Below, in pieces: positions 9,401-28,293 of a stretch of 64,000 nt of DNA. A program made the translations under genes and the position numbers. Position 1 is the stretch's first letter; every line of letters begins with the position of its first letter. The notes below the pieces were generated by a model. That model saw nothing but the letters and a program-made list of their open reading frames with translations, was not told the DNA's origin and ran no database searches. The stretch comes from a virus: the IMG/VR virus record IMGVR_UViG_3300028549_003029, positions 91 to 64,090 of that record; one strand, given 5' to 3'.

Positions 9401-9460
9401 GAAATTCGAGAAACATAACGCTTATGCAGATTGTATTTTAAGCCATACTTGGAGGTAAAT

Positions 9461-12400
9461 ATGCAAGATAAGATCTTAGCGCAACTCGCCCAGATGAGCT
9501 ACGACAAGCGTCAGAACACAATGATGAACGCTACAGTGTCAACCACTGTTAATCATGTTTTAAATAATGTTGAAAATGATAAAATTAAGCTTGTTGCAGA
9601 TAATGTAGAAGTAGTTAAAAAATACGAGCATGACGATCTGGCTAAGCAAAAAGACATCGCAGACAAGCAGCAAGTTTTTTCTGACGAAATCAGAGCTGAC
9701 CTGAAGCTTATCAGCAAAGAGACCGGTGAAGTTATTGACACTGCACTCGGCGTTAAGATCGCAGAAATACCGAAGGTGACCGATCGAATGACTTACTTGA
9801 TCAAAGGTAACGAATACCAGACAAGTATGCAGCCTCGACTCAAGTCCGGAGTTTATACAAAGACTCAAAGCAATGGTGAGATCAGTTCTTATTTCAACGT
9901 TGATAAAACCGTTGACTTTGACCGCGGTTTCAATAACGACTTCAGAATCGACTTTGAACCAGAGTCGAAGATTTTCAGCATGAGATACGGCGGGAAGAAG
10001 ATACCCCTTCTGAGCACGTTAAAAGCTCTAGGCGTATCATCGCGTGACCTTGAGGCTAAATGGGGCAAGGAAGTGCTAGATGAGAACGAGAGAATGTACG
10101 GACGCCATGAAGAGAGAGATATCAAAAAGCTTTACAGCGCGGTGTTCGGGAAAGAGTCTGGTAAAGACGAAAAGCTTGCCGACCTTTCAGCCGCAATAAA
10201 AGAGCGACTTTTTGACACGAGACTCAATCCAGAGGTAACATCGATCACTCTTGGAAAAGCTTATGACAAAGTGAACGGAAGCGCAATACTCGATGCGTCA
10301 AAGAAAATCATCGATATCAACCGTGGAGTTGAAGATGAAGATGACCGCGAGTCTCTCATGTTCAAGAACATCGTAGGGATCGAAACTCACATCAAAGAGC
10401 GACTCGTAAAAAGCTCGAAACAAATCGCGAACAATATCGCTCACAAGCTCGGGAAAACCGGGAAGATCAACTCTTCCATCTCATCGCAGATGTTCCGTCC
10501 TTACATCGAGGGAGTGATCACAGGATCTCAGATCTCCAACCCGCCAAACCAGACGAACATCATGTCGATCATTGGTGAATCAACGAAAATCACTCCTATG
10601 GGAGAAGGCGGTATTGGATCGGCAAACGCGATTACAGATAGTATGCGTGTTCTGTCGAACACCGAAGCCGGATTTGTCGATCCTTTGCACACACCTGAAG
10701 GTGGAGGTATCGGTATTTCTAAGCACCTTTCCAATGGTACTGTCGTTGTAGAAGGTACACCTTACAGTACTTTTATCAACCGCAAGAGCGGGAAGAAAGA
10801 GATGAAATCTCCTTCTGAACTGTACAGTAAGTACCTTTCATTTCCGGACCAGTTTGACTCTAATGGTAAGCCGAAGAATAAAAAAGTGTCTGTAATCCAT
10901 AAGGGTAAAATGACCACTGTTGACGCTTCCGAAGTTGACTATGTGATCCCTTCATCTGAGTTCATGTTTGATACCGCTGCTGCGTCCATTCCTTTCCTTG
11001 ACTCAATCCAAGGTAACCGTGGTCTTACCGCTTCGAAAATGCAGGAGCAGTCAGTGTCTCTTACGAACAGAGAGAAACCGCTGTTCAACATTATGGCAGG
11101 GAACGGGAAGTCGCTTTCAAAAGCTCTCGGATCTTCGATCGCGGTTCCAAAGTCTCCTGTTGATGGAGTCGTAGAGAACTTGACTGACGAGCTTATGGTG
11201 ATAAAAGGAAAAGACGGTAAGAGTCATGAGATTCAACTGTACCACAACTTCTCACTTAACTCAGAGTCGTTCCTGAACAATGACCCGCTCGTTAAGATTG
11301 GTGACAAAGTTGAAAAGGGCCAGATTCTTGCAGACAATAACTTCACGAAAGATGGCCACGTTGCCCTCGGAGCAAACCTTCGAGTTGCTTACATGCCTTA
11401 CCGCGGATGGAACTATGAAGACTCAGCAGTGATAAGTGAGTCTGGAGCTAAAAAGCTTCAGTCGCAGCACATGTATGACTTCAAAGCAAGAAGAAGCTCT
11501 GGTGGTACTTTCGACAAGAAGAAATTTGCCGCTTACTATCCTGAAGAGACTTCTTCAAAGACAATGGCAAAGCTCGATGCAAACGGAATTATCAAAGTGG
11601 GCCAAAAGGTTGAACACGGAGATATTCTCATTGCTCACATGGAACCAGTAGCTCCAACTGCTGATGATATCGCTGTAGGAAGACTTGATAAGCAGCTCAA
11701 AAGAGACATGGCTAACAACTCAGTAAAATGGGATAAAGGCCACGTTGGAATTGTTACAAGCGTGACTAAGCACGGTAACAATGTCGTTGTGAACGTGAAG
11801 ACAAAAGAGGATATGAAGAAGGCTGACAAGATCGCTGGACTCCACGGTAACAAGCACATCATCTCGGAAATTCTTCCTGATGACCAGATGCCTTTTGACC
11901 CGGTCACCGGTAAGCATATTGAGCTTACAATGTCACCGATCGGTGTGTCTAACCGAATCAACACTTCTCAGCTCCTTGAGAATGCTGCTGGTAAAATTGC
12001 CGAGAAAACCGGTAAACAGTATGAAATTCACAACTTCGAAGACACAGATAACTCAAGAAAAGTTATGAGAGCTCTAAAGGAGAACGGTCTTTCAGATAAA
12101 GACAAGTTGATCAACCCAGAGACTGGGAAGCCTTTCAAGAGTGAGATCGCTAATGGCGTGTCTCACATCCTCAAGCTTGAGCACACTATCGATCACAAGT
12201 TCTCATCTCGATACAGAGGTGGGTACGACTCAAATGAACAGGCATCAAGCGGAGGGCATCATGGTGGCAAAAACGTCGGAAGAATGGAATCAGCGGCTCT
12301 CCTTGCCCGAGGTGCAACTGCAAACCTTGAGGAGATATTCGGAGTTAAAGGACAGCGGAATGATGAGTATTGGCGAAACATGGAAATGGGCATACCTACC

Positions 12401-15400
12401 CCTACTCCTAAGAGCCCTGCTTTCGTATGGGATAAATTCCTTGCGATGTCGAAAGGAGCGGGGGTAAATATCGAGCGTAAAGGCAAGTCTTTCACGATGA
12501 AGCCTATGACCGATGAAGATATCATGAAGATCTCTGCCGGCGAGCTTACTCGTCCAACTGAGACTTATCGTAAAAAGAACTTTGAGCCTGTAAATGGTGG
12601 ATTGTTCGATCCGAAAATTGTAGGAGGTATGAGAGGTGACAAGTATTCTCACATCCAACTTCCTGAGAGTATTCTTAATCCGATAACAGCGAAAGCAGTC
12701 GCCGGGATTCTTGAGATGCCAGAGAGCAGACTCGAAGCAATCGCTGAAGGGACTCAGTTCATAAGCAAGAAGACCGGTGAAAATGTCTCAAAAGGACACG
12801 CTGATGGGTACACTGCAAACGAAGCTATTAAGAGCTTGTTGAAAAACATAGATCTTGATAAGGAGTATGAACAGGCTAAAAAACAGTCTGAGTTAACCCA
12901 TAGCACTGCTGATCTCAATAAGCTCAACCGTAAGATGAATTACATCAAAGGGCTTAAAAAGAACGGTCTTGAAGCAAAAGATCTTATGATAAGCAAAGTA
13001 CTTGTCACTCCTTCAAAGTTCAGACCAATGATCCAGATGGGAGCGGATGGTACCGTTATCATCGCTGATGAGAATGAACTGTACCAGCAGGTTGCTCAGA
13101 CTTCTAAAGCTCTCGAAGACCATAAAGATGCTATGAAGGATCTACCTAAAAGCGTTCTTGGCATTACAGCAGCTGAAGGACGTGGACAACTGTACAAAGA
13201 CGTTCGCGCTCTTCAAGGGTTGTCTGAACCAACTGCATACCTTCACAAGATCAAAAAGAAAAAAGGGTTCCTTGCTCAGATTGACGGTGGAGACAAGCAG
13301 ACAAAAGAAGGGTACTACCAGAACAAGGTGATGGAGCGCCGTCAAGACTTGGTTGGTCGTTCTACCATTACTCTTAATCCATCTCTTGGTGGTGACCAGA
13401 TGGGTATTCCAGAAGAAATGGCGACAGACATTTTCCGTCCGTTTATCATGCAGAAACTCGTATCTTGGGGGTACAAGCCTCTTGATGCGAAAAAACAAGT
13501 TGACGATGACAGCAGTGTGTTTAAAAAGGCTCGCGAAGTTGTCGCTGGAGAGAGACTCATAATTGCAAACAGAGCACCTTCTCTTCACAAGTGGAACATG
13601 ACAGCTTTCCATCCTGTTCTTACAAAAGGAAAGTCAATTGAGACTCCAGCTGTTGTGATCTCAAAGAACTTTGATGGTGACTTTGATGGTGACACATTTC
13701 AGATCCACGTCCCTGTAAGCAAGAAAGCCCTTGAAGAAGCCTACACAATGCTTCCGTCTGTAAACATGCTTAAGACCGGGTACGGATCTGTTCTTAACAT
13801 GCCTGACATGGACATGATTGCAGGAGCGTACCTTGCATCAAAAGGTGAGGGTAGCGACGGGAAAGTTCACGAGTTCAAAACTCTTGAAGAGATGCAGAAG
13901 GCTATAAAAAGCCATAAGATCGATCACTCTGACATGGTAAAAATAGGCAAGAGAACCGACAATGCAATCATGCATGATATCAACAGTACTCTTCCTGAAA
14001 AATTCCATAAATGGGGCCATGATCTCAACAAGAAAAATGTTGAGAAGTGGATTGCTGATGTCAGTGAGAACGGACCAAAAGGAACAGGTTTAGACCTTGC
14101 AGACAAGATTAAGGAAGTCGGTAATGATTACATTACGAAATTCGGACTCACACTTGGCGTCTCAGACACGCTTGTTGACACTGAAAAGAGAGACGATATT
14201 GTCAAAAAAGCATGGGAGAAAGCAAAAACAGAAGGTGTGGTATCTGCATTCTCATGGGCAAAAGAAGAAGCTAAAAATGAACTTGCTTCTAAGCACGGGA
14301 TCAAGTCGCAAGTTGGGATTCCACTTATCTCAGGAGCAGGTAAAGGCATTGGAAACACGTCTGACATCGCAATGTTCCCAGGAATCCTTGCCGACGCAAA
14401 TGACAATCCTATCGAAATCCCGATCCTTCGTTCTTATTCTGAAGGTCTCGATACTTTTGGTTACTGGGCGGCTGCTCACGGAGCACGAGGTGGTAACATC
14501 AAAAAATCTGTCCAATCGTTCAAGCCAGGGTACCTGACAAAGAAGATGATCAACACAATGTACGAAACTCGTATCGCGAGCGAAGCTCCGATGGATACTG
14601 AAGGTGTTGAGTACAAAGTGTCAGATAAGAAAGGTATTGTAAACAGATACCTTGCTCAGGATGCAGTTGATAAAAAAGGCAAAGTTGTTGCGAAGAGAAA
14701 CGATCTGATCGATGCTGCTCTTATCAATAAATTCCACATTACAGGAACGAAGAAGATCTATGTTCAGTCACCTTTAACAGACCCTACTCCTGGAGAAGGG
14801 TTCTCAGCTTGGTCGTATGGAGTTTCTGACAACAATCGTAGAATGAACCGCGGTGACCATGTCGGGGTAATATCTGCACACACAATCACGCAGCCATCTC
14901 TTAACCTTGCGATGAAATCGTTCCACTCAGGTGGTAAGATAGATGCAAAAAGCGCGAAGAGAAAGGTGAATACCGGTTCTGCGTTTGACGAGATGGACAG
15001 AGTATTCAGCTTTGTTCAAACACCTCCAGACAAAGCAACTTTGGCAAAAATTGACGGTGTTGTCGAAAGTGTGAACCGGTCCGGAGTTGGCGGATTTGAT
15101 GTCGTGATAAGTGGCACCAAACACTACGTTTCTAAAAATGTTGACACCGAAGTAAAAGTTGGTGACAAAGTTAAGAAAGGCCAGCAGATATCAACTGGCA
15201 CTCCTAACCCTCACGAAGTTCTAAGTCTTCGCGGGATGAAAGAGACCCAGAAGTATCTCGTTGAAAAGCTTAGTGATATCAACGAAGGGAACCTCGATAA
15301 GAGAAACATCGAGACGATTGTAAGAAGTATCACGAATACAACAAGAATTACCGATCCAGGTAAAAGTGATTATGTTAAAGGTGACACGGTAGCTCTTACA

Positions 15401-15628
15401 ACTGTTGAGCATCTCAATAAGAATGGGCTTGGGATTAAACACTCTCCATTCCTTGTTGCGATGGGTATCGGTGGCAAGCCGGCGTTGTCAAAAGACTTCA
15501 TTGGAAGACTTGGCCACAACAGACTTAAAGACGTGTTCCAAGACGGTTCTGTGATGGGTTACGAAAGCAAAATTGATAGAGACTCTGGCAACCCTATGAC
15601 AAGACTTGTCAGCGGCGTTTACGAATAA
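9461..15628 (+). CDS. rpoBC: DNA-directed RNA polymerase, fused beta-beta' single chain
   Basis: beta motifs HTPEGGGIG, GNRGLTASKMQEQ, GWNYEDS, DKIAGLHGNK, GGKNVGRME; beta' motifs RQDLVGRS, NRAPSLH, FDGDFDGD, GYLTKKM, LAMKSFHSGG; GGAGG SD before ATG 9461. Confidence 0.97.
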   Translation: MQDKILAQLAQMSYDKRQNTMMNATVSTTVNHVLNNVENDKIKLVADNVEVVKKYEHDDLAKQKDIADKQQVFSDEIRADLKLISKETGEVIDTALGVKIAEIPKVTDRMTYLIKGNEYQTSMQPRLKSGVYTKTQSNGEISSYFNVDKTVDFDRGFNNDFRIDFEPESKIFSMRYGGKKIPLLSTLKALGVSSRDLEAKWGKEVLDENERMYGRHEERDIKKLYSAVFGKESGKDEKLADLSAAIKERLFDTRLNPEVTSITLGKAYDKVNGSAILDASKKIIDINRGVEDEDDRESLMFKNIVGIETHIKERLVKSSKQIANNIAHKLGKTGKINSSISSQMFRPYIEGVITGSQISNPPNQTNIMSIIGESTKITPMGEGGIGSANAITDSMRVLSNTEAGFVDPLHTPEGGGIGISKHLSNGTVVVEGTPYSTFINRKSGKKEMKSPSELYSKYLSFPDQFDSNGKPKNKKVSVIHKGKMTTVDASEVDYVIPSSEFMFDTAAASIPFLDSIQGNRGLTASKMQEQSVSLTNREKPLFNIMAGNGKSLSKALGSSIAVPKSPVDGVVENLTDELMVIKGKDGKSHEIQLYHNFSLNSESFLNNDPLVKIGDKVEKGQILADNNFTKDGHVALGANLRVAYMPYRGWNYEDSAVISESGAKKLQSQHMYDFKARRSSGGTFDKKKFAAYYPEETSSKTMAKLDANGIIKVGQKVEHGDILIAHMEPVAPTADDIAVGRLDKQLKRDMANNSVKWDKGHVGIVTSVTKHGNNVVVNVKTKEDMKKADKIAGLHGNKHIISEILPDDQMPFDPVTGKHIELTMSPIGVSNRINTSQLLENAAGKIAEKTGKQYEIHNFEDTDNSRKVMRALKENGLSDKDKLINPETGKPFKSEIANGVSHILKLEHTIDHKFSSRYRGGYDSNEQASSGGHHGGKNVGRMESAALLARGATANLEEIFGVKGQRNDEYWRNMEMGIPTPTPKSPAFVWDKFLAMSKGAGVNIERKGKSFTMKPMTDEDIMKISAGELTRPTETYRKKNFEPVNGGLFDPKIVGGMRGDKYSHIQLPESILNPITAKAVAGILEMPESRLEAIAEGTQFISKKTGENVSKGHADGYTANEAIKSLLKNIDLDKEYEQAKKQSELTHSTADLNKLNRKMNYIKGLKKNGLEAKDLMISKVLVTPSKFRPMIQMGADGTVIIADENELYQQVAQTSKALEDHKDAMKDLPKSVLGITAAEGRGQLYKDVRALQGLSEPTAYLHKIKKKKGFLAQIDGGDKQTKEGYYQNKVMERRQDLVGRSTITLNPSLGGDQMGIPEEMATDIFRPFIMQKLVSWGYKPLDAKKQVDDDSSVFKKAREVVAGERLIIANRAPSLHKWNMTAFHPVLTKGKSIETPAVVISKNFDGDFDGDTFQIHVPVSKKALEEAYTMLPSVNMLKTGYGSVLNMPDMDMIAGAYLASKGEGSDGKVHEFKTLEEMQKAIKSHKIDHSDMVKIGKRTDNAIMHDINSTLPEKFHKWGHDLNKKNVEKWIADVSENGPKGTGLDLADKIKEVGNDYITKFGLTLGVSDTLVDTEKRDDIVKKAWEKAKTEGVVSAFSWAKEEAKNELASKHGIKSQVGIPLISGAGKGIGNTSDIAMFPGILADANDNPIEIPILRSYSEGLDTFGYWAAAHGARGGNIKKSVQSFKPGYLTKKMINTMYETRIASEAPMDTEGVEYKVSDKKGIVNRYLAQDAVDKKGKVVAKRNDLIDAALINKFHITGTKKIYVQSPLTDPTPGEGFSAWSYGVSDNNRRMNRGDHVGVISAHTITQPSLNLAMKSFHSGGKIDAKSAKRKVNTGSAFDEMDRVFSFVQTPPDKATLAKIDGVVESVNRSGVGGFDVVISGTKHYVSKNVDTEVKVGDKVKKGQQISTGTPNPHEVLSLRGMKETQKYLVEKLSDINEGNLDKRNIETIVRSITNTTRITDPGKSDYVKGDTVALTTVEHLNKNGLGIKHSPFLVAMGIGGKPALSKDFIGRLGHNRLKDVFQDGSVMGYESKIDRDSGNPMTRLVSGVYE

Positions 15629-15657: not shown

Positions 15658-16194
15658 ATGAATAGTTTTGTTTCCGGGGCTCTCCCCGGTTTTTACACAT
15701 ACGATGATGCAAAAGACAACCCATACTCTAGCAGGGCTGGGAATGTTGCAGGGGCGTTCGTATCTGGGGCTGTAGTTCCTGTTGCAACAACCGGATTAAT
15801 AGCAGCGGCAGCAGCTAAAATGCTAAAAGATAAGAATCCTGTAGTAGCCAAAAATCTGAAAGACGCAGCTCTTTCTCAGGTTGATATTCTCAACCCTTCA
15901 ATGATGACTAAGCATGTCAAAAGTATTCCACTGATGACTAAGGCGACATTGAATATGAGCAAGGCTGAGACAGCGAAGAATATCTTTGCCAAAGCTCACG
16001 CCTACTCAAAAACGATGAAGAACGCGAAAGACATTTCCAAGCTTTACGGCATTGGTGTCACCAAAGTAGCCCCAATGTCTGCAAGAAGTATTGGAGCTCT
16101 CACCGGAGTAGTCGGAGGAGTTGCTGCTGGAGTTGCAAACGCAATGCTTGTTAACGGAAATTACACCCGTGGAAAAAGAGATGGGATGCTATAA
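15658..16194 (+). CDS. hypothetical Ala/Gly-rich probable virion protein
   Basis: 178 aa with two hydrophobic small-residue segments. Confidence 0.65.
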   Translation: MNSFVSGALPGFYTYDDAKDNPYSSRAGNVAGAFVSGAVVPVATTGLIAAAAAKMLKDKNPVVAKNLKDAALSQVDILNPSMMTKHVKSIPLMTKATLNMSKAETAKNIFAKAHAYSKTMKNAKDISKLYGIGVTKVAPMSARSIGALTGVVGGVAAGVANAMLVNGNYTRGKRDGML

Positions 16195-17519
16195 TGGAAT
16201 TGCAAGATCACCAAAAGGAAGCTATAAAGAGACTTAATGGTGGAATGATCTATTACCATGGTCTCGGAACAGGTAAGACTTTTACGTCTATTGCTGCAAC
16301 AGGCAAGTATGACAAAGTGAATGTTGTAACCCCTGCATCTCTTCGAGAGAACTACAAAAAAGAGATCGTGAAGGCCGGTGTAAAAGCTGAAAACTACAAT
16401 GTCGGGTCATACGACCAGGCGCAGAAAAAAGCTCCACCTACAGCCGACGCGATCATAGTTGATGAGGTTCACAGGATTTCTGAACCTTCAAGCAAAAGAT
16501 CAAGAGCGATACTTGACATAGCAAAATCGCACAAAACAAGAATCGGTCTTACAGCGACTCCAATCGTGAACAGGCCATCAGACCTCGCCCCGCTTGCCCA
16601 CTTCGTTGACCCAAACTCCGACATCCCAATGTCAAGAAAAGAGTTTGACAAGCGGTACATTGGGACGCACAAACCTAATGTCGTTGCAAAGCTATTTGGA
16701 GCGAGAGACTCTAATTTTGTAAGCAACAAAAAGGAGTTGAAGAAGGCGTTCAAAGGAAGAATGCACTACGTTCCAGGTGGAGAGAAAGACTTTCCTGAAG
16801 TGAAGACTGAGTATGTTGATGTTAGAATGACAAAGCCTCAAGAGCGTCTTTACAAGACACTTGCTCACACGGCAAACCCGTTGGTAGCATTCAAAGTAAG
16901 GCACATGATCCCTCTGTCTTCACAAGAGCTCAAGACTGCAAACTCTTTCATGTCTGCAACAAGACAGGCATCGAATGACCCTCAGAAATTCGGGAATCAT
17001 GGAGAAGGGTCGAAAGTCAAAAGAGCTATAATAGACATGGTTGAAGCGAGTAAAAAGGATCCTAACTACAAAGGTCTTGTCTACTCGAATTACATCAAAA
17101 GTGGTACGTCCCTCATGACTAAAGAGCTTGATGCAAACGGGATTCCGTATCGAATATTCAACGGATCTCTCGGAGATGAAGTTCGTAAAAAGGCTGTTGC
17201 TGACTACAATAGCGGAGCCGCTAAAGCCTTGTTGATTTCATCTGCCGGAGCAGAAGGACTTGACTTGAAAGGCACCAAGATGGTTCAGGTTCTTGAGCCT
17301 CACTGGAACAATAACCGTATCAGACAGGTTATCGGAAGAGCTGCTCGATACAAGTCTCACGATGCTCTCCCAGAAAAAGAGCGTAAAGTTGTTGTAAGAA
17401 GATACCAAAGCACACTCCGTAGAGGTGCAAGTGCTGATGTATATTTGAACGACATGGCGAAGAAAAAAGACGAGCTTAATGATAAGTTCCTCGAAGTTTT
17501 GAAAGAGGTTGGCAAATGA
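16194..17519 (+). CDS. SNF2-family helicase/ATPase
   Basis: YHGLGTGKT, IIVDEVH, LTATP, SAGAEGLDLK, EPHWN, QVIGRAAR. Confidence 0.9.
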   Translation: MELQDHQKEAIKRLNGGMIYYHGLGTGKTFTSIAATGKYDKVNVVTPASLRENYKKEIVKAGVKAENYNVGSYDQAQKKAPPTADAIIVDEVHRISEPSSKRSRAILDIAKSHKTRIGLTATPIVNRPSDLAPLAHFVDPNSDIPMSRKEFDKRYIGTHKPNVVAKLFGARDSNFVSNKKELKKAFKGRMHYVPGGEKDFPEVKTEYVDVRMTKPQERLYKTLAHTANPLVAFKVRHMIPLSSQELKTANSFMSATRQASNDPQKFGNHGEGSKVKRAIIDMVEASKKDPNYKGLVYSNYIKSGTSLMTKELDANGIPYRIFNGSLGDEVRKKAVADYNSGAAKALLISSAGAEGLDLKGTKMVQVLEPHWNNNRIRQVIGRAARYKSHDALPEKERKVVVRRYQSTLRRGASADVYLNDMAKKKDELNDKFLEVLKEVGK

Positions 17520-25176: not shown

Positions 25177-25208
25177 AAAAAAATAAAAGCCCGGTTTTTA
25201 CACCGGGC
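25177..25208 (-). terminator. intrinsic terminator closing the RT operon
   Basis: GCCCGGU/ACCGGGC stem followed by UUUUAUUUUUUU on the minus strand. Confidence 0.8.
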
Positions 25209-25213
25209 TAATT

Positions 25214-25296
25214 CTGCAAACATACCTGGCGTGACCAGGGCAGTAACTCTCCAATTCGAAACGAATTGGTTACGCTTGTTGAGCGCTTCTTTGCAG
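25214..25296 (-). ncRNA. candidate retron msr/msd-like four-stem RNA
   Basis: closing inverted repeat CUGCAAA/UUUGCAG enclosing three hairpins, with an unpaired G right after the 5' arm; lies between the RT-linked ORFs and the terminator. Confidence 0.6.
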
Positions 25297-25300
25297 TAGA

Positions 25301-25483
25301 CTACTTCTTTTTCGCACCTCGGTACTTGCGTAAAATTCTCTCGTCCTCTTTTGCTTTCCATTTCTCGTGGATTTTGTCGAACAGGTCGATTGCACCAGAG
25401 ATCATGTCGGCAACCATAGGAATAATTTCAAGAGAGTTTGTCGCGACCTTGCGAAAACCATCCATAGTCGGCTTCTTCGGCAT
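25301..25483 (-). CDS. 60-aa amphipathic/basic peptide overlapping the RT 3' end
   Basis: GGAGG SD inside the RT ORF; IIPMVADMISGAIDLFDKI helix and basic tail. Confidence 0.6.
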   Translation of the reverse strand: MPKKPTMDGFRKVATNSLEIIPMVADMISGAIDLFDKIHEKWKAKEDERILRKYRGAKKK

Positions 25484-26555
25484 AAGTATCCTCCATATTA
25501 ACGTTCTTAAGCCCTGGCTTGGCTGTCGCTAACATGTCCATATACTTCTTACCTTTGACTTTATCGATACTCATCAAGTAACTGCACCAGCCACGAAGTT
25601 TCATAAGTCTTTCAACTGTCAATTTCTCAGGGTGTTTCACTACAGCGTGGTGAACCATTGCCCTGAACATTTTCATTTGGTACTTTGAAACTGATAGCTT
25701 ATCATTCACAACAACCCCACAAACTTCAAGTCTTGCACCGCGGTGTCTGAACCTTACCTTCTTTGGATTCACTTCAAACCCGTATGCCCAAAGCATTGAT
25801 TTAGCCTTTGGAACAACGATGCTTGCAAGCTCTGAAGAAGACATTCCATACACCTCATTTTCATCGGTCACACCTCCATGAGAGAACGAAAGGTCGTCTG
25901 CATATCTGGTGTAATTGATTTCTCTTTCTTTACACCATTTCGCAACGCGATCATCAAATCCTCTCATGATGATATTTGCAAGAATCGGAGATGTCGGGAA
26001 CCCTTGTGGAGTGTAGCCCTTGTACGTTACAAGTTTCACAATCTTTGAAAGGAGCGGATCATAATCGGATTTTTCGCAGAAGTCAGGAATCAACATGGCC
26101 TTGATCTCTGGACAGACTCCGATATATTCACCGGACTGATTCTTGTACAGGGATGGACTACATTTACCAGCCTTCATACTACTGTGCATCGTACATGCTT
26201 TGCACACCTTCTTGTTTCCAAGGAGACAGTTTTTCAGGTGGTCTTCATTGATCGAATCAAAGAAGTCCTTCACATCGATCGTCCCAAGAGATCTTGACCG
26301 AAGGTGAGGCTTTGCATTTGTTACGATGCTTCTGTTGATCTTGAACCCGTGAGCAGCATCGTGAGTGTTGTACTCCAAAAGGAAGAATGAGATCGATTTT
26401 AGAATTGTCTTGTATTCACCAACAGGCTCAACAATCTTTCTAAATCCACCTCTCTTCTTAGGGATTTTTATCTCCCTGACCCACTTGCTCTGATCCGAGA
26501 TTATCCGACCCGCTAGATCCCAGTCGATGTTCAGAAGCTTTTCCTTCGTAATCAT
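25428..26555 (-). CDS. retron-type reverse transcriptase
   Basis: IPKKRGGFRKI, AHGF, NAKPH (retron region X NAxxH), DVKDFFDSI, PQGFPTSP, YTRYADDLSFS, EVCGVVV (VTG-like region Y). Confidence 0.93.
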   Translation of the reverse strand: MITKEKLLNIDWDLAGRIISDQSKWVREIKIPKKRGGFRKIVEPVGEYKTILKSISFFLLEYNTHDAAHGFKINRSIVTNAKPHLRSRSLGTIDVKDFFDSINEDHLKNCLLGNKKVCKACTMHSSMKAGKCSPSLYKNQSGEYIGVCPEIKAMLIPDFCEKSDYDPLLSKIVKLVTYKGYTPQGFPTSPILANIIMRGFDDRVAKWCKEREINYTRYADDLSFSHGGVTDENEVYGMSSSELASIVVPKAKSMLWAYGFEVNPKKVRFRHRGARLEVCGVVVNDKLSVSKYQMKMFRAMVHHAVVKHPEKLTVERLMKLRGWCSYLMSIDKVKGKKYMDMLATAKPGLKNVNMEDTYAEEADYGWFSQGRDKLS

Positions 26556-26614
26556 TTACAGCACTCCCTCTCTCTGATCCTTGTTTAACCATCTCTTCAA
26601 CTGGGTCACATTCA

Positions 26615-27523
26615 TCAATCGCATACTTCTCCATCGATTCTCTCCAAGTTCATGATTATTGCCGACGTTACTTCAAATTCGTCAGCCTCATCGATCTTGC
26701 CTCCTGCAATACCTTTGTGGCCTCCGACACCTTTTTCTCCGATTACTGACCGCAGAACATCAACAGCGTCAACCTTGCTTTCAATCCACGGGCTAACGCT
26801 GAGTCTGACAGACAAGCTGTTACCTTTTCCGTAAGTGTACCGAATGCAATATCGCATATTTCTGTAGATGTAGAACTCAGCGTATCTTGCGATCGGAGCC
26901 TTGTCATGTTGGAAAATTACACCAACACCATTAATGATCGTAATGTCGTTCATCGCTGACTTCGATGCATCGATATCATGATTAATGATCTTATCGATAT
27001 CAACACCTGAAACAACTTTTTCGACATCAAGATCATTGATTACAAGGCTGCCGACGATTGCGTTCATAAAATGTTTGTTTACACCAGCATTCTGAGCAAC
27101 CCATATCCGCAGGATGTTTATCGGATCTCTTGATTCAAACGGTTCAGAAGGAGACTTGTACGTTGCAGTGTCAACATCTCCGATTGCTCTGATAAGGTCC
27201 TCGCTTATTACGCGGCCTTTCACAAGAGCATAAGACGCAAGGATCTGAAAGCAGCTTCTTGCATCAACGTTGAACAGGTCACCTTCGACTGGAACCGAGT
27301 TGGACTTGTGGTGGTCAAACCAAAGATCAACACCAGGAGCTCTGTCAATATCAATCGCAACAACTGTTGCGCCTTTGATCTTTTTGGTGAGCTTTGTATA
27401 GACCTGTCTGTCTGCAGAACGAACAGGCTGCAAGTTGAACTTACAGCCTGGATTTGATAATACAAATAGAGCGGCGCTCATGGCGCCGTCTACGTCGTTG
27501 TGGTAAAATACTTGATAGAACAA
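26615..27523 (-). CDS. DHH/DHHA1-family phosphoesterase
   Basis: YHNDVDG, AIDID, FDHH, C-terminal GGHKGIAGG; TTG start with GGAGGT SD. Confidence 0.88.
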   Translation of the reverse strand: MFYQVFYHNDVDGAMSAALFVLSNPGCKFNLQPVRSADRQVYTKLTKKIKGATVVAIDIDRAPGVDLWFDHHKSNSVPVEGDLFNVDARSCFQILASYALVKGRVISEDLIRAIGDVDTATYKSPSEPFESRDPINILRIWVAQNAGVNKHFMNAIVGSLVINDLDVEKVVSGVDIDKIINHDIDASKSAMNDITIINGVGVIFQHDKAPIARYAEFYIYRNMRYCIRYTYGKGNSLSVRLSVSPWIESKVDAVDVLRSVIGEKGVGGHKGIAGGKIDEADEFEVTSAIIMNLERIDGEVCD

Positions 27524-27588
27524 AATACCTCCAATAAGTTAAATGCTACCTTTCATAGTAGTTGTTCCTTAATTGGAGCTAGAATAAC

Positions 27589-28293
27589 TTAGCTTCCGCC
27601 GTATTCGTCGAACGTAGAGTTCTTGATAGCACTGTTGAACGCTACACCTCCACCGATCGCTCCGGTGACTCCGACGCCAACAACAGCATTCCCGAACTTT
27701 TTCTTTCGGCTATCAAATTTCGCCTTCTTTGCAGCAAGAGCGGCGTCTCTCTCGGCGGCAGCAGCAGATATTTTCGCAGCCTCTCTTTGAGCAGCAGTGC
27801 TGTAACCTTTTACACCAAGAGTCCCGCCTACTTCATGAAGGAGATTGTTAATGCCGCCAGTGATGCGATCATCTTTTACGGCAGCTTCTGCCGACCCTTT
27901 TACTTTATCAACTTCGTTGTAAAAGTTTTTAGCTTTTCCGAAAAGAGAGTCTCTACTGCCTTGGAGCTTTTTAAGATTGTTGTCGTGCCGAGCATATTGT
28001 TCAGTACCTTTTTCAAAAGCGTCTCTTGCTTGAGCGCGTTGTCCAATAAGCTCGTCGTAACGAGCGTTTCTCTTCTTGTTAGCACCCCAAATGCTTTTCA
28101 CGCCCTCAATCAACTCTTCTCCGGCACTTGTTTGCTTGATGTCATCGAATGTAGATTTTACGGCGTCTTTCAGATGGGCAGCAGTCTGTGTTCCGCCCAC
28201 GGCTTTACCGACTGCGTCGAACCCCTTTTTTGTGTATTCGCTAACAAGCTGGCCCCAGCCCGCATTCTTCTCTATCATGTGTCCACCTTCCAT
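27589..28293 (-). CDS. KxA-motif virion-type protein on the minus strand
   Basis: IEKNAG near the N-terminus, Gly-rich hydrophobic C-terminal segment; divergent from 28327. Confidence 0.65.
   Translation of the reverse strand: MEGGHMIEKNAGWGQLVSEYTKKGFDAVGKAVGGTQTAAHLKDAVKSTFDDIKQTSAGEELIEGVKSIWGANKKRNARYDELIGQRAQARDAFEKGTEQYARHDNNLKKLQGSRDSLFGKAKNFYNEVDKVKGSAEAAVKDDRITGGINNLLHEVGGTLGVKGYSTAAQREAAKISAAAAERDAALAAKKAKFDSRKKKFGNAVVGVGVTGAIGGGVAFNSAIKNSTFDEYGGS

Follow-up and report, generated by a model that had tools for sequence, protein, structure and literature searches.

The window analysed here, a stretch of 64,000 nucleotides (nt) from IMG/VR virus record IMGVR_UViG_3300028549_003029 (positions 91 to 64,090), contains a gene at positions 9461–15628 that encodes a complete bacterial-type catalytic core of RNA polymerase (RNAP) on one polypeptide. 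In this protein, beta is joined head-to-tail to beta' at the position where the separate subunits of the cellular enzyme are in contact anyway. The source is an uncultured phage with a genome of roughly 150–180 kb, and the record is a viral contig of 64.6 kb with a CheckV completeness of 36%. The protein and seven of its relatives were aligned using MAFFT with beta and beta' of Salmonella and Staphylococcus aureus, and Escherichia coli numbering is used for bacterial residues. The elements of the gene are as follows (aa, amino acids).

9461–15628, plus strand: fused beta–beta' RNAP gene, a stop-free translation of 2055 codons (2055 aa) with no cysteine.
9451–9455, plus strand: Shine-Dalgarno sequence GGAGG, read directly from the sequence, 5 nt ahead of the ATG at 9461.
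9461–12475, plus strand: beta module, aa 1–1005, mapped with MAFFT to Salmonella and S. aureus beta.
12476–15625, plus strand: beta' module, aa 1006–2055, from the alignment.
12461–12511, plus strand: junction GVNIE/RKGKSF/TMKPMT, aa 1001–1017, from the alignment.
11837–11854, plus strand: double-psi-barrel motif of beta, GLHGNK, aa 793–798, which aligns with bacterial GRHGNK and includes the active-site lysine.
13679–13693, plus strand: catalytic Mg-binding loop DFDGD, aa 1407–1411, from the alignment.
13049–13201, plus strand: clamp helices (coiled coil) of beta', aa 1197–1247, from the alignment; predicted docking site of sigma.
14441–14938, plus strand: bridge helix (aa ~1661–1700) and trigger loop (aa ~1801–1826), from the alignment; the SI3 insertion is absent.

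The original prediction, made from the sequence alone, placed all main conserved blocks of beta and beta' in a single 2055-aa open reading frame (ORF), and translation, Pfam and the alignment all bear this out. Pfam located Rpb2_3 and Rpb2_6 at aa 363–926 and Rpb1_1, Rpb1_2, Rpb1_3 and Rpb1_5 at aa 1122–1970; five of these cellular RNAP domains pass the curated cut-offs (Rpb2_6 with 189.7 bits), and Rpb1_3 alone falls below. The closest solved structures are bacterial beta and beta' chains (E about 1e-75), with one beta match covering aa 65–973 and one beta' match covering aa 1120–2035. A megablast search of the RNAP region against the phage collection returned no matches. The independent IMG/VR record G001 (152,686 bp, 84% complete), which has 98.4% DNA identity to the window, encodes an RNAP that is letter-for-letter identical to the 2055-aa protein. 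Because of this identical protein and of well over 100 distinct fused relatives, the ORF cannot be attributed to an assembly artefact.

At the junction, GVNIE (aa 1001–1005) aligns with GINIE at residues 1335–1339 of E. coli beta, three residues short of the beta C-terminus, and the six-residue link RKGKSF leads into the equivalent of beta' residue ~15, so that the position proposed earlier for the junction is correct. An AlphaFold2 model of aa 880–1460, computed from a 20-sequence alignment, has a predicted local distance difference test score (pLDDT) of 84.2 and a predicted template-modelling score of 0.79, and the two sides of the junction are modelled as adjacent strands with a pLDDT of about 87–93. 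Using this model as a query, Foldseek returned bacterial beta', the cyanobacterial gamma subunit and its plastid counterpart (TMq about 0.62); the root-mean-square deviation from full-length bacterial beta' chains was about 3.5 Å over about 480 columns.

Judged by the alignment, the elements of the active site (GLHGNK, DFDGD, bridge helix and trigger loop) are intact. D1407, D1409, G1410 and D1411 are invariant in a 20-member alignment of the family. The two residues ahead of DFDGD are DG where NA is usual, and more distant family members retain NADFDGD. The clamp helices, flap tip, bridge helix and trigger loop all align with their E. coli and S. aureus counterparts, so that both docking elements for sigma, the clamp helices and the flap tip, are retained. 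The residues at the positions of the E. coli rifampicin pocket differ in the window protein, and we would therefore expect the enzyme to be insensitive to rifampicin.

As predicted, the chain is shorter than a bacterial beta and beta' pair, with 2055 aa versus 2749 aa in Salmonella and about 2400 aa in S. aureus (the latter measured as stop-to-stop frames); in the most compact bacteria of the candidate phyla radiation (CPR) that we sampled, beta and beta' together comprise about 2270–2320 aa. The regions missing from beta correspond to E. coli residues 225–355 (SI1 region), 934–1037 (SI2) and 1125–1178, and those missing from beta' to the zinc ribbon (65–96), SI3 (944–1130) and the C-terminal tail (1367–1407). 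In total, about 665 residues are missing relative to E. coli and about 285 relative to S. aureus, and the sole insertion relative to E. coli is of 14 aa. Within the gene, a 33-nt direct repeat (11291–11323 and 15152–15184, 82% identical) encodes VKIGDKVEKGQ within beta and VKVGDKVKKGQ within beta'; both sites coincide with weak hybrid-barrel matches in Pfam (RnfC_N, Peptidase_M23, Biotin_lipoyl).

Zinc sites and cysteines are affected as well. Zn1, the zinc ribbon of beta', is replaced by a 32-aa deletion in all eight family members aligned, and the four cysteines of Zn2 are replaced in the subclade of the window; of the four more distant members in the alignment, three retain them. Not one of the 2055 residues of the RNAP is a cysteine, versus 1.2% in the other ORFs of the window (P about 2e-11), and the neighbouring SNF2 ATPase (441 aa) lacks cysteine too. 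Across 141 family members of 1950–2200 aa the distribution of cysteine counts has two modes, with 50 members at zero and 48 at exactly four. Four is also the number of Zn2 ligands, although the positions of these cysteines were not located in each member. A cysteine-free chain would be well adapted to storage outside the cell and passage through a tail.

The window protein belongs to a large family. A word-indexed protein search with clustering at 90% identity recovered more than 100 clusters of full-length fused proteins, 30–64% identical, on contigs of up to 195 kb. An exhaustive search with the beta' half of the window protein as the query found 1718 proteins with E ≤ 1e-30. The family comprises at least 150 clusters at 50% identity; the 150 best-scoring ones all have E ≤ 1e-118, and nearly all of them are fused. 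Most of the 77 IMG/VR loci compared have one open frame of roughly 2000–2650 aa. About 15 of the 77 have a frame of about 1450–1500 aa, which in several is followed by a separate gene for the C-terminal part of beta' (beta'C) and in others is cut by the contig end. The family has cultured members in Salmonella phage Arash (gp206 and gp216) and Vibrio phages D69, D148 and D181, with genomes of about 180 kb; the D69 enzyme is about 30% identical to the window RNAP over 95% of its length.

The promoter-recognition factor of the enzyme had been described as unknown, a claim that the data do not support, as a candidate is encoded just outside the window. Record G001 encodes, at 134,122–134,811 and about 25 kb past the window end, a 230-aa homologue of Arash gp10 that scores above the Pfam cut-off for Sigma70_r3; a search of G001 with Sigma70_r2 gave no match, and only the Arash gp10 protein and Sigma70_r3 revealed the sigma gene. 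Sigma homologues are present in 16 of the 17 long relatives and in 12 of the 13 relatives that are at least 90% complete, and a profile built from eleven homologues matches SigA regions 2–4 along its length (E = 5.6e-19). In a complex model of the sigma protein with aa 1006–1460 of the RNAP, the interface score ipSAE is 0.77 versus 0.00 for the best of three controls; 58 of 80 solved complexes attained that mark, as did 2 of 110 mismatched pairs, the runs share at least 53% of their contacts, and the pLDDT of the partner is at least 72. The predicted interface brings the clamp helices (aa 1197–1247) against sigma residues 42–58. Since many sigma–beta' complexes have already been solved structurally, this result may reflect likeness to known structures and not binding. 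Co-occurrence and the complex model together lend fair support to the view that the core uses the phage-encoded 230-aa sigma-70-family factor, which would give it promoter specificity for phage genes.

The same prediction noted that the window has no sigma, alpha or omega gene. A sigma homologue is indeed absent from the window and from the rest of its record, but as the record represents about 36% of the genome, the absence of any of the three from the window is weak evidence. For alpha and omega the statement can be extended: Pfam searches for alpha (PF01000, PF01193) and omega (PF01192) matched all 14 control genomes and found nothing in the 84%-complete G001 or in the two complete cultured relatives, Arash and D69. 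Each complete relative checked has a single RNAP gene. A search with PF00940 (T7-type RNAP) is uninformative, as it gave no matches in the phage genomes and none in the controls either. The observation behind the original prediction is thus confirmed, and its interpretation is supported in part, the claim about the promoter factor not being supported.

The explanation that we judge best, and on balance probable, is a joint one: a one-chain core that works with a phage sigma factor, is packed in the virion, and has a covalent tether in place of the alpha and omega scaffold. Delivery of the window enzyme by the virion together with the DNA is likely, with moderate support from three sources. First, proteomics of Arash virions found gp206, which comprises beta and the N-terminal part of beta' (beta'N), with 3516 spectra, the highest number for any protein, and gp216 with 1210; gp10 (sigma) and gp217 (SNF2 helicase) were detected in the preparations as well (PMC10585845). 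Second, a portal gene of the Arash type lies at most 3 kb upstream of the RNAP gene in 39 of the 77 loci. Third, the window enzyme is free of cysteine. In the proposed mechanism, the virion would carry the enzyme, probably together with sigma and, in some lineages, the SNF2 ATPase; the enzyme would enter the cell with the DNA and start phage transcription independently of the host RNAP. The tether would replace the assembly scaffold formed by the alpha dimer and omega, a step that we only infer, as we do independence from host alpha. With a single RNAP per genome, the enzyme may therefore serve all phases of infection. A more far-reaching version, in which the chain and the 230-aa sigma form a self-sufficient, zinc- and cysteine-free two-protein holoenzyme without alpha or omega that is held in the capsid, passes threaded through the tail and performs all phage transcription, is possible but doubtful.

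Several observations weigh against this explanation. The authors of the Arash study point out that an abundant enzyme may co-purify with virions as carry-over (PMC10585845). Virion association was measured for Arash only, and the fully fused members are known here from their sequences; the Arash RNAP is only about 30% identical to that of the window and consists of two pieces, and besides the RNAP only the helicase and TerL, among 28 Arash proteins used as queries, have counterparts in the window that BLAST can detect. In the subclade of the window the portal gene is not adjacent to the RNAP gene, and the SNF2 ATPase is found in only 7 of 17 long relatives. The sigma gene is located outside the window and was assigned through a record that is near-identical, not identical. 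A scan for sigma-70-like promoters around the RNAP gene gave no excess over the shuffled expectation. Finally, the lack of alpha and omega genes is compatible with the use of host alpha, and G001 is only 84% complete.

Some of these points would also fit a non-virion RNAP that is made after infection and transcribes middle and late genes, like the non-virion enzymes of phiKZ and AR9, the early genes being read by the host enzyme. The window gene lies beside helicases and a lysin and not beside a portal gene, the single RNAP per genome leaves no dedicated pair of virion and non-virion enzymes, and mere co-purification is allowed for by the Arash authors (PMC10585845). Against it, the RNAP pieces, sigma and helicase of Arash are among the most abundant virion-associated proteins (PMC10585845), portal and RNAP genes are syntenic in half of the loci (39/77), and a complete lack of cysteine is unexpected in a purely cytoplasmic enzyme. 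We regard a non-virion role as unlikely, though still plausible.

A second alternative keeps the fused chain dependent on the host: it would be a replacement for beta and beta' that plugs into the host alpha dimer and perhaps omega. The alignment with bacterial beta and beta' extends along nearly the whole length of the protein, which has no extra domain able to replace alpha (the sole insertion being the 14 aa mentioned above), and cellular RpoBC fusions, of which we found two fused CPR frames, are, as far as is known, used with alpha. Yet the hosts of relatives span at least Vibrio and Salmonella, and identities within the family go down to about 30%, which would seem to make a conserved fit to many different host alpha subunits demanding; an enzyme ejected from the virion would, moreover, have to meet host alpha before acting. 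Phage multisubunit RNAPs of the phiKZ and AR9 types do exist without alpha (PMC7598289). Dependence on host alpha seems to us distinctly unlikely.

Phylogeny sets the family apart from the bacterial enzymes. We scanned bacterial assemblies, one genome per species for 185k species; the best 80 matches are ordinary rpoB–rpoC loci with 24–30% identity, and no member of the phage family was found among the assemblies, so the scan gives no clue to the host. A tree was then computed from 59 concatenated or fused sequences (1929 columns, LG+G4, quick search, fast alignment), its limits being that archaeal and eukaryotic outgroups are absent and that many rows are compositionally biased. The 29 bacteria, which include CPR, Bacteroidota, Bacillota, Actinomycetota, Chloroflexota, Planctomycetota and Pseudomonadota, all fall on one side of a branch with a support of 100 in the Shimodaira–Hasegawa-like approximate likelihood-ratio test (SH-aLRT). 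All fused proteins form one clade with the Arash/D69 enzymes and the split enzyme of locus L089 (SH-aLRT 99), and, as had been anticipated, none of the bacterial phyla sampled includes the family. Another long branch outside the family is formed by Carin-5 and GN1; in both, beta and beta' are separate proteins, and in Carin-5 a gene annotated as sigma lies next to them. A recent capture of host rpoBC or a mis-binned bacterial fragment, with no phage-specific lineage behind it, would account for the bacterial-type order of domains and motifs, but is contradicted by the tree, in which bacteria are monophyletic against the phage clade, by identities of no more than 30% to any of the best 80 bacterial loci, and by phage-gene neighbours (TerL, a head protease-like protein and a lysin) on a record that is a viral contig, and can be set aside as extremely improbable.

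Within the family clade, Arash/D69 is sister to the rest, and L089 is nested among fused forms, which suggests that the fusion at the beta–beta' junction is the ancestral state of the family and that the splits arose secondarily. In the Arash/D69-type enzymes, which share the junction fusion and are homologous to the window protein across the whole enzyme, a break behind the position that corresponds to aa ~1496 yields beta–beta'N of about 1525 aa and beta'C of about 607 aa. Nine genes separate the two pieces in Arash, and the interval contains a homing endonuclease in D181 and D148. In the lineage of L089 (5649–11081) and L049, which belongs to the fused clade, beta' is a separate gene of 1026 aa, and beta comes in two or more parts, which represents a secondary breakup of the enzyme. 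A reverse transcriptase gene is located near the RNAP in L089.

Many family members, among them P0006, P0009, P0013, P0036, P0054, P0103, P0113 and P0120 (aligned to P0001), carry inteins of about 500–530 aa, and the gene of the window has none. In the nine members examined, the main insertion site is directly after DFDGD (after aa 1411/1412), and the other sites are at aa ~800, next to GLHGNK, and at aa ~1832, after the trigger loop. Fused forms, forms split in two or in three, and forms interrupted by inteins at catalytic residues thus occur in one family, which amounts to a natural experiment on the breaks that the enzyme tolerates.

The RNAP gene is carried on a Caudovirales contig: genes for TerL and for a protein weakly similar to a head-maturation protease lie farther along the window, and a GH108 lysin is encoded in the neighbourhood of the RNAP. 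Upstream of the RNAP gene, on the opposite strand, is a helicase of the DEAD/Helicase_C_2 type. The features that follow the gene are listed below.

15658–16194, plus strand: 178-aa ORF of unknown function, between the RNAP and SNF2 helicase genes.
15674–15694, plus strand: terminator-like GC hairpin followed by a T run, from a pattern scan, 46 nt past the RNAP stop.
16194–17519, plus strand: SNF2-family ATPase/helicase, 441 aa, with the Pfam domains SNF2-rel_dom and Helicase_C.

The 178-aa ORF has no PHROG match, no significant Pfam match and no homologue in the 77 related loci, and the terminator-like hairpin sits inside its first codons as called. Matches to the terminator pattern around the RNAP gene were not above the number expected from shuffled sequences, and a repeat search for shared promoter motifs returned coding low-complexity repeats only. 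The SNF2 protein is 35% identical to Arash gp217, which follows the Arash beta'C gene, and SNF2 is adjacent to the RNAP in the window, in Arash and in 3 of the 77 loci. Given its presence in 7 of 17 long relatives, we rejected the SNF2 ATPase as a universal partner of the RNAP. In G001, a 1.28-kb insertion (L004:16170–17446) directly follows the RNAP stop, that is, right after position 15628 of the window, and carries a 419-aa ORF of unknown function with no significant Pfam match. Between the RNAP block and the head genes, the minus strand at 25177–28293 encodes a retron-like reverse transcriptase with a DHH phosphoesterase.

The bacterial RNAP needs the alpha dimer for its assembly and the zinc sites for folding. 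A one-chain, zinc- and cysteine-free enzyme that works with a small sigma factor would offer a minimal system in which to study the assembly of the two-barrel core and could serve as a compact orthogonal transcription module; if the two-protein holoenzyme is real, it is the smallest known promoter-specific RNAP of the bacterial type. The family marks a very large, almost uncultured group of phages with genomes of 150–220 kb that probably bring their own bacterial-style holoenzyme, which changes the view of their early gene expression and of host defences against it.

Among the closest known systems are the cultured relatives. Arash gp10 and its D69 homologue provide a sigma-like partner gene as in G001, and the window differs from Arash, D69, D148 and D181 in having one uncut chain. 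A phage-encoded bacterial-like RNAP is thus known, and virion association has been reported for it in Arash. The variant in which one fully fused chain lacks zinc and cysteine and has a sigma factor of its own is seemingly undescribed in the open literature: we found no description of the fully fused form in open-access articles and bioRxiv preprints.

The mReC lineages are metagenomic tailed phages with bacterial-like, deep-branching beta and beta' that are outside the cellular clades and detectable with hidden Markov models (HMMs) (PMC7481178). In the rows of their table that were compared, beta (1000–1487 aa) and beta' (887–1303 aa) are separate proteins (PMC7481178), and some are similarly compact, with beta of about 1000 aa and beta' of about 900 aa, or 1364 and 1005 aa. 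These rows, in Supplementary Data 2, give beta and beta' different protein identifiers (PMC7481178), whereas the window has one ORF. Fusion is mentioned in the main text only for crAss-like phages, and neither 'fused' nor 'fusion' was found in the supplementary files (PMC7481178). The mReC filter demanded NADxDGD (PMC7481178), which the window protein fails because its motif reads DGDFDGD. Sample 3300020048, the source of the near-identical record, is absent from the mReC tables, and a comparison of sample identifiers linked no member of the family to a published mReC contig. The beta and beta' sizes of Carin-5 and GN1 are like those of the smaller mReC class, and both phages are outside the fused clade in our tree.

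Natural fusions of RpoB and RpoC are found in cellular organisms, in Helicobacter and Wolbachia, and work together with alpha. We also noted stop-free fused rpoB–rpoC frames in two CPR metagenome-assembled genomes, L118:2698–9510 (Saccharibacteria, 2271 aa) and L123:163–7014 (Paceibacterota, 2284 aa), which group with other CPR bacteria in the tree. In the cellular fusions, too, beta precedes beta', and the two are joined where the chains natively meet; they differ from the window protein in having alpha, omega and zinc sites, and they are about 25% identical to it.

The placement of the window enzyme as a bacterial-type fusion in a tailed phage, of neither the phiKZ nor the crAss type, is supported by comparison with both. 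The phiKZ/AR9-type enzymes are phage-encoded, alpha-less two-barrel RNAPs, one version of which is packaged in the virion (PMC7598289, PMC7824862). They are very divergent, consist of 4–5 polypeptides, occur as two sets per genome and have no sigma factor (PMC7824862). In contrast, the enzyme of the window family is one chain present in one copy, with a partner of the sigma-70 family and strong similarity to bacterial enzymes. PHROG matches of the window RNAP to phiKZ-type families are weak (1e-8 to 1e-22).

Both barrels are in one polypeptide in crAss-like gp66, which is delivered by the virion, and in YonO, as they are in the window RNAP. The crAss-like enzyme has been described as a beta–beta' fusion (PMC7481178). 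The crAss-like and YonO enzymes are too divergent for the HMMs of cellular beta and beta' (PMC7481178), whereas the window protein passes the cut-offs of five Pfam domains.

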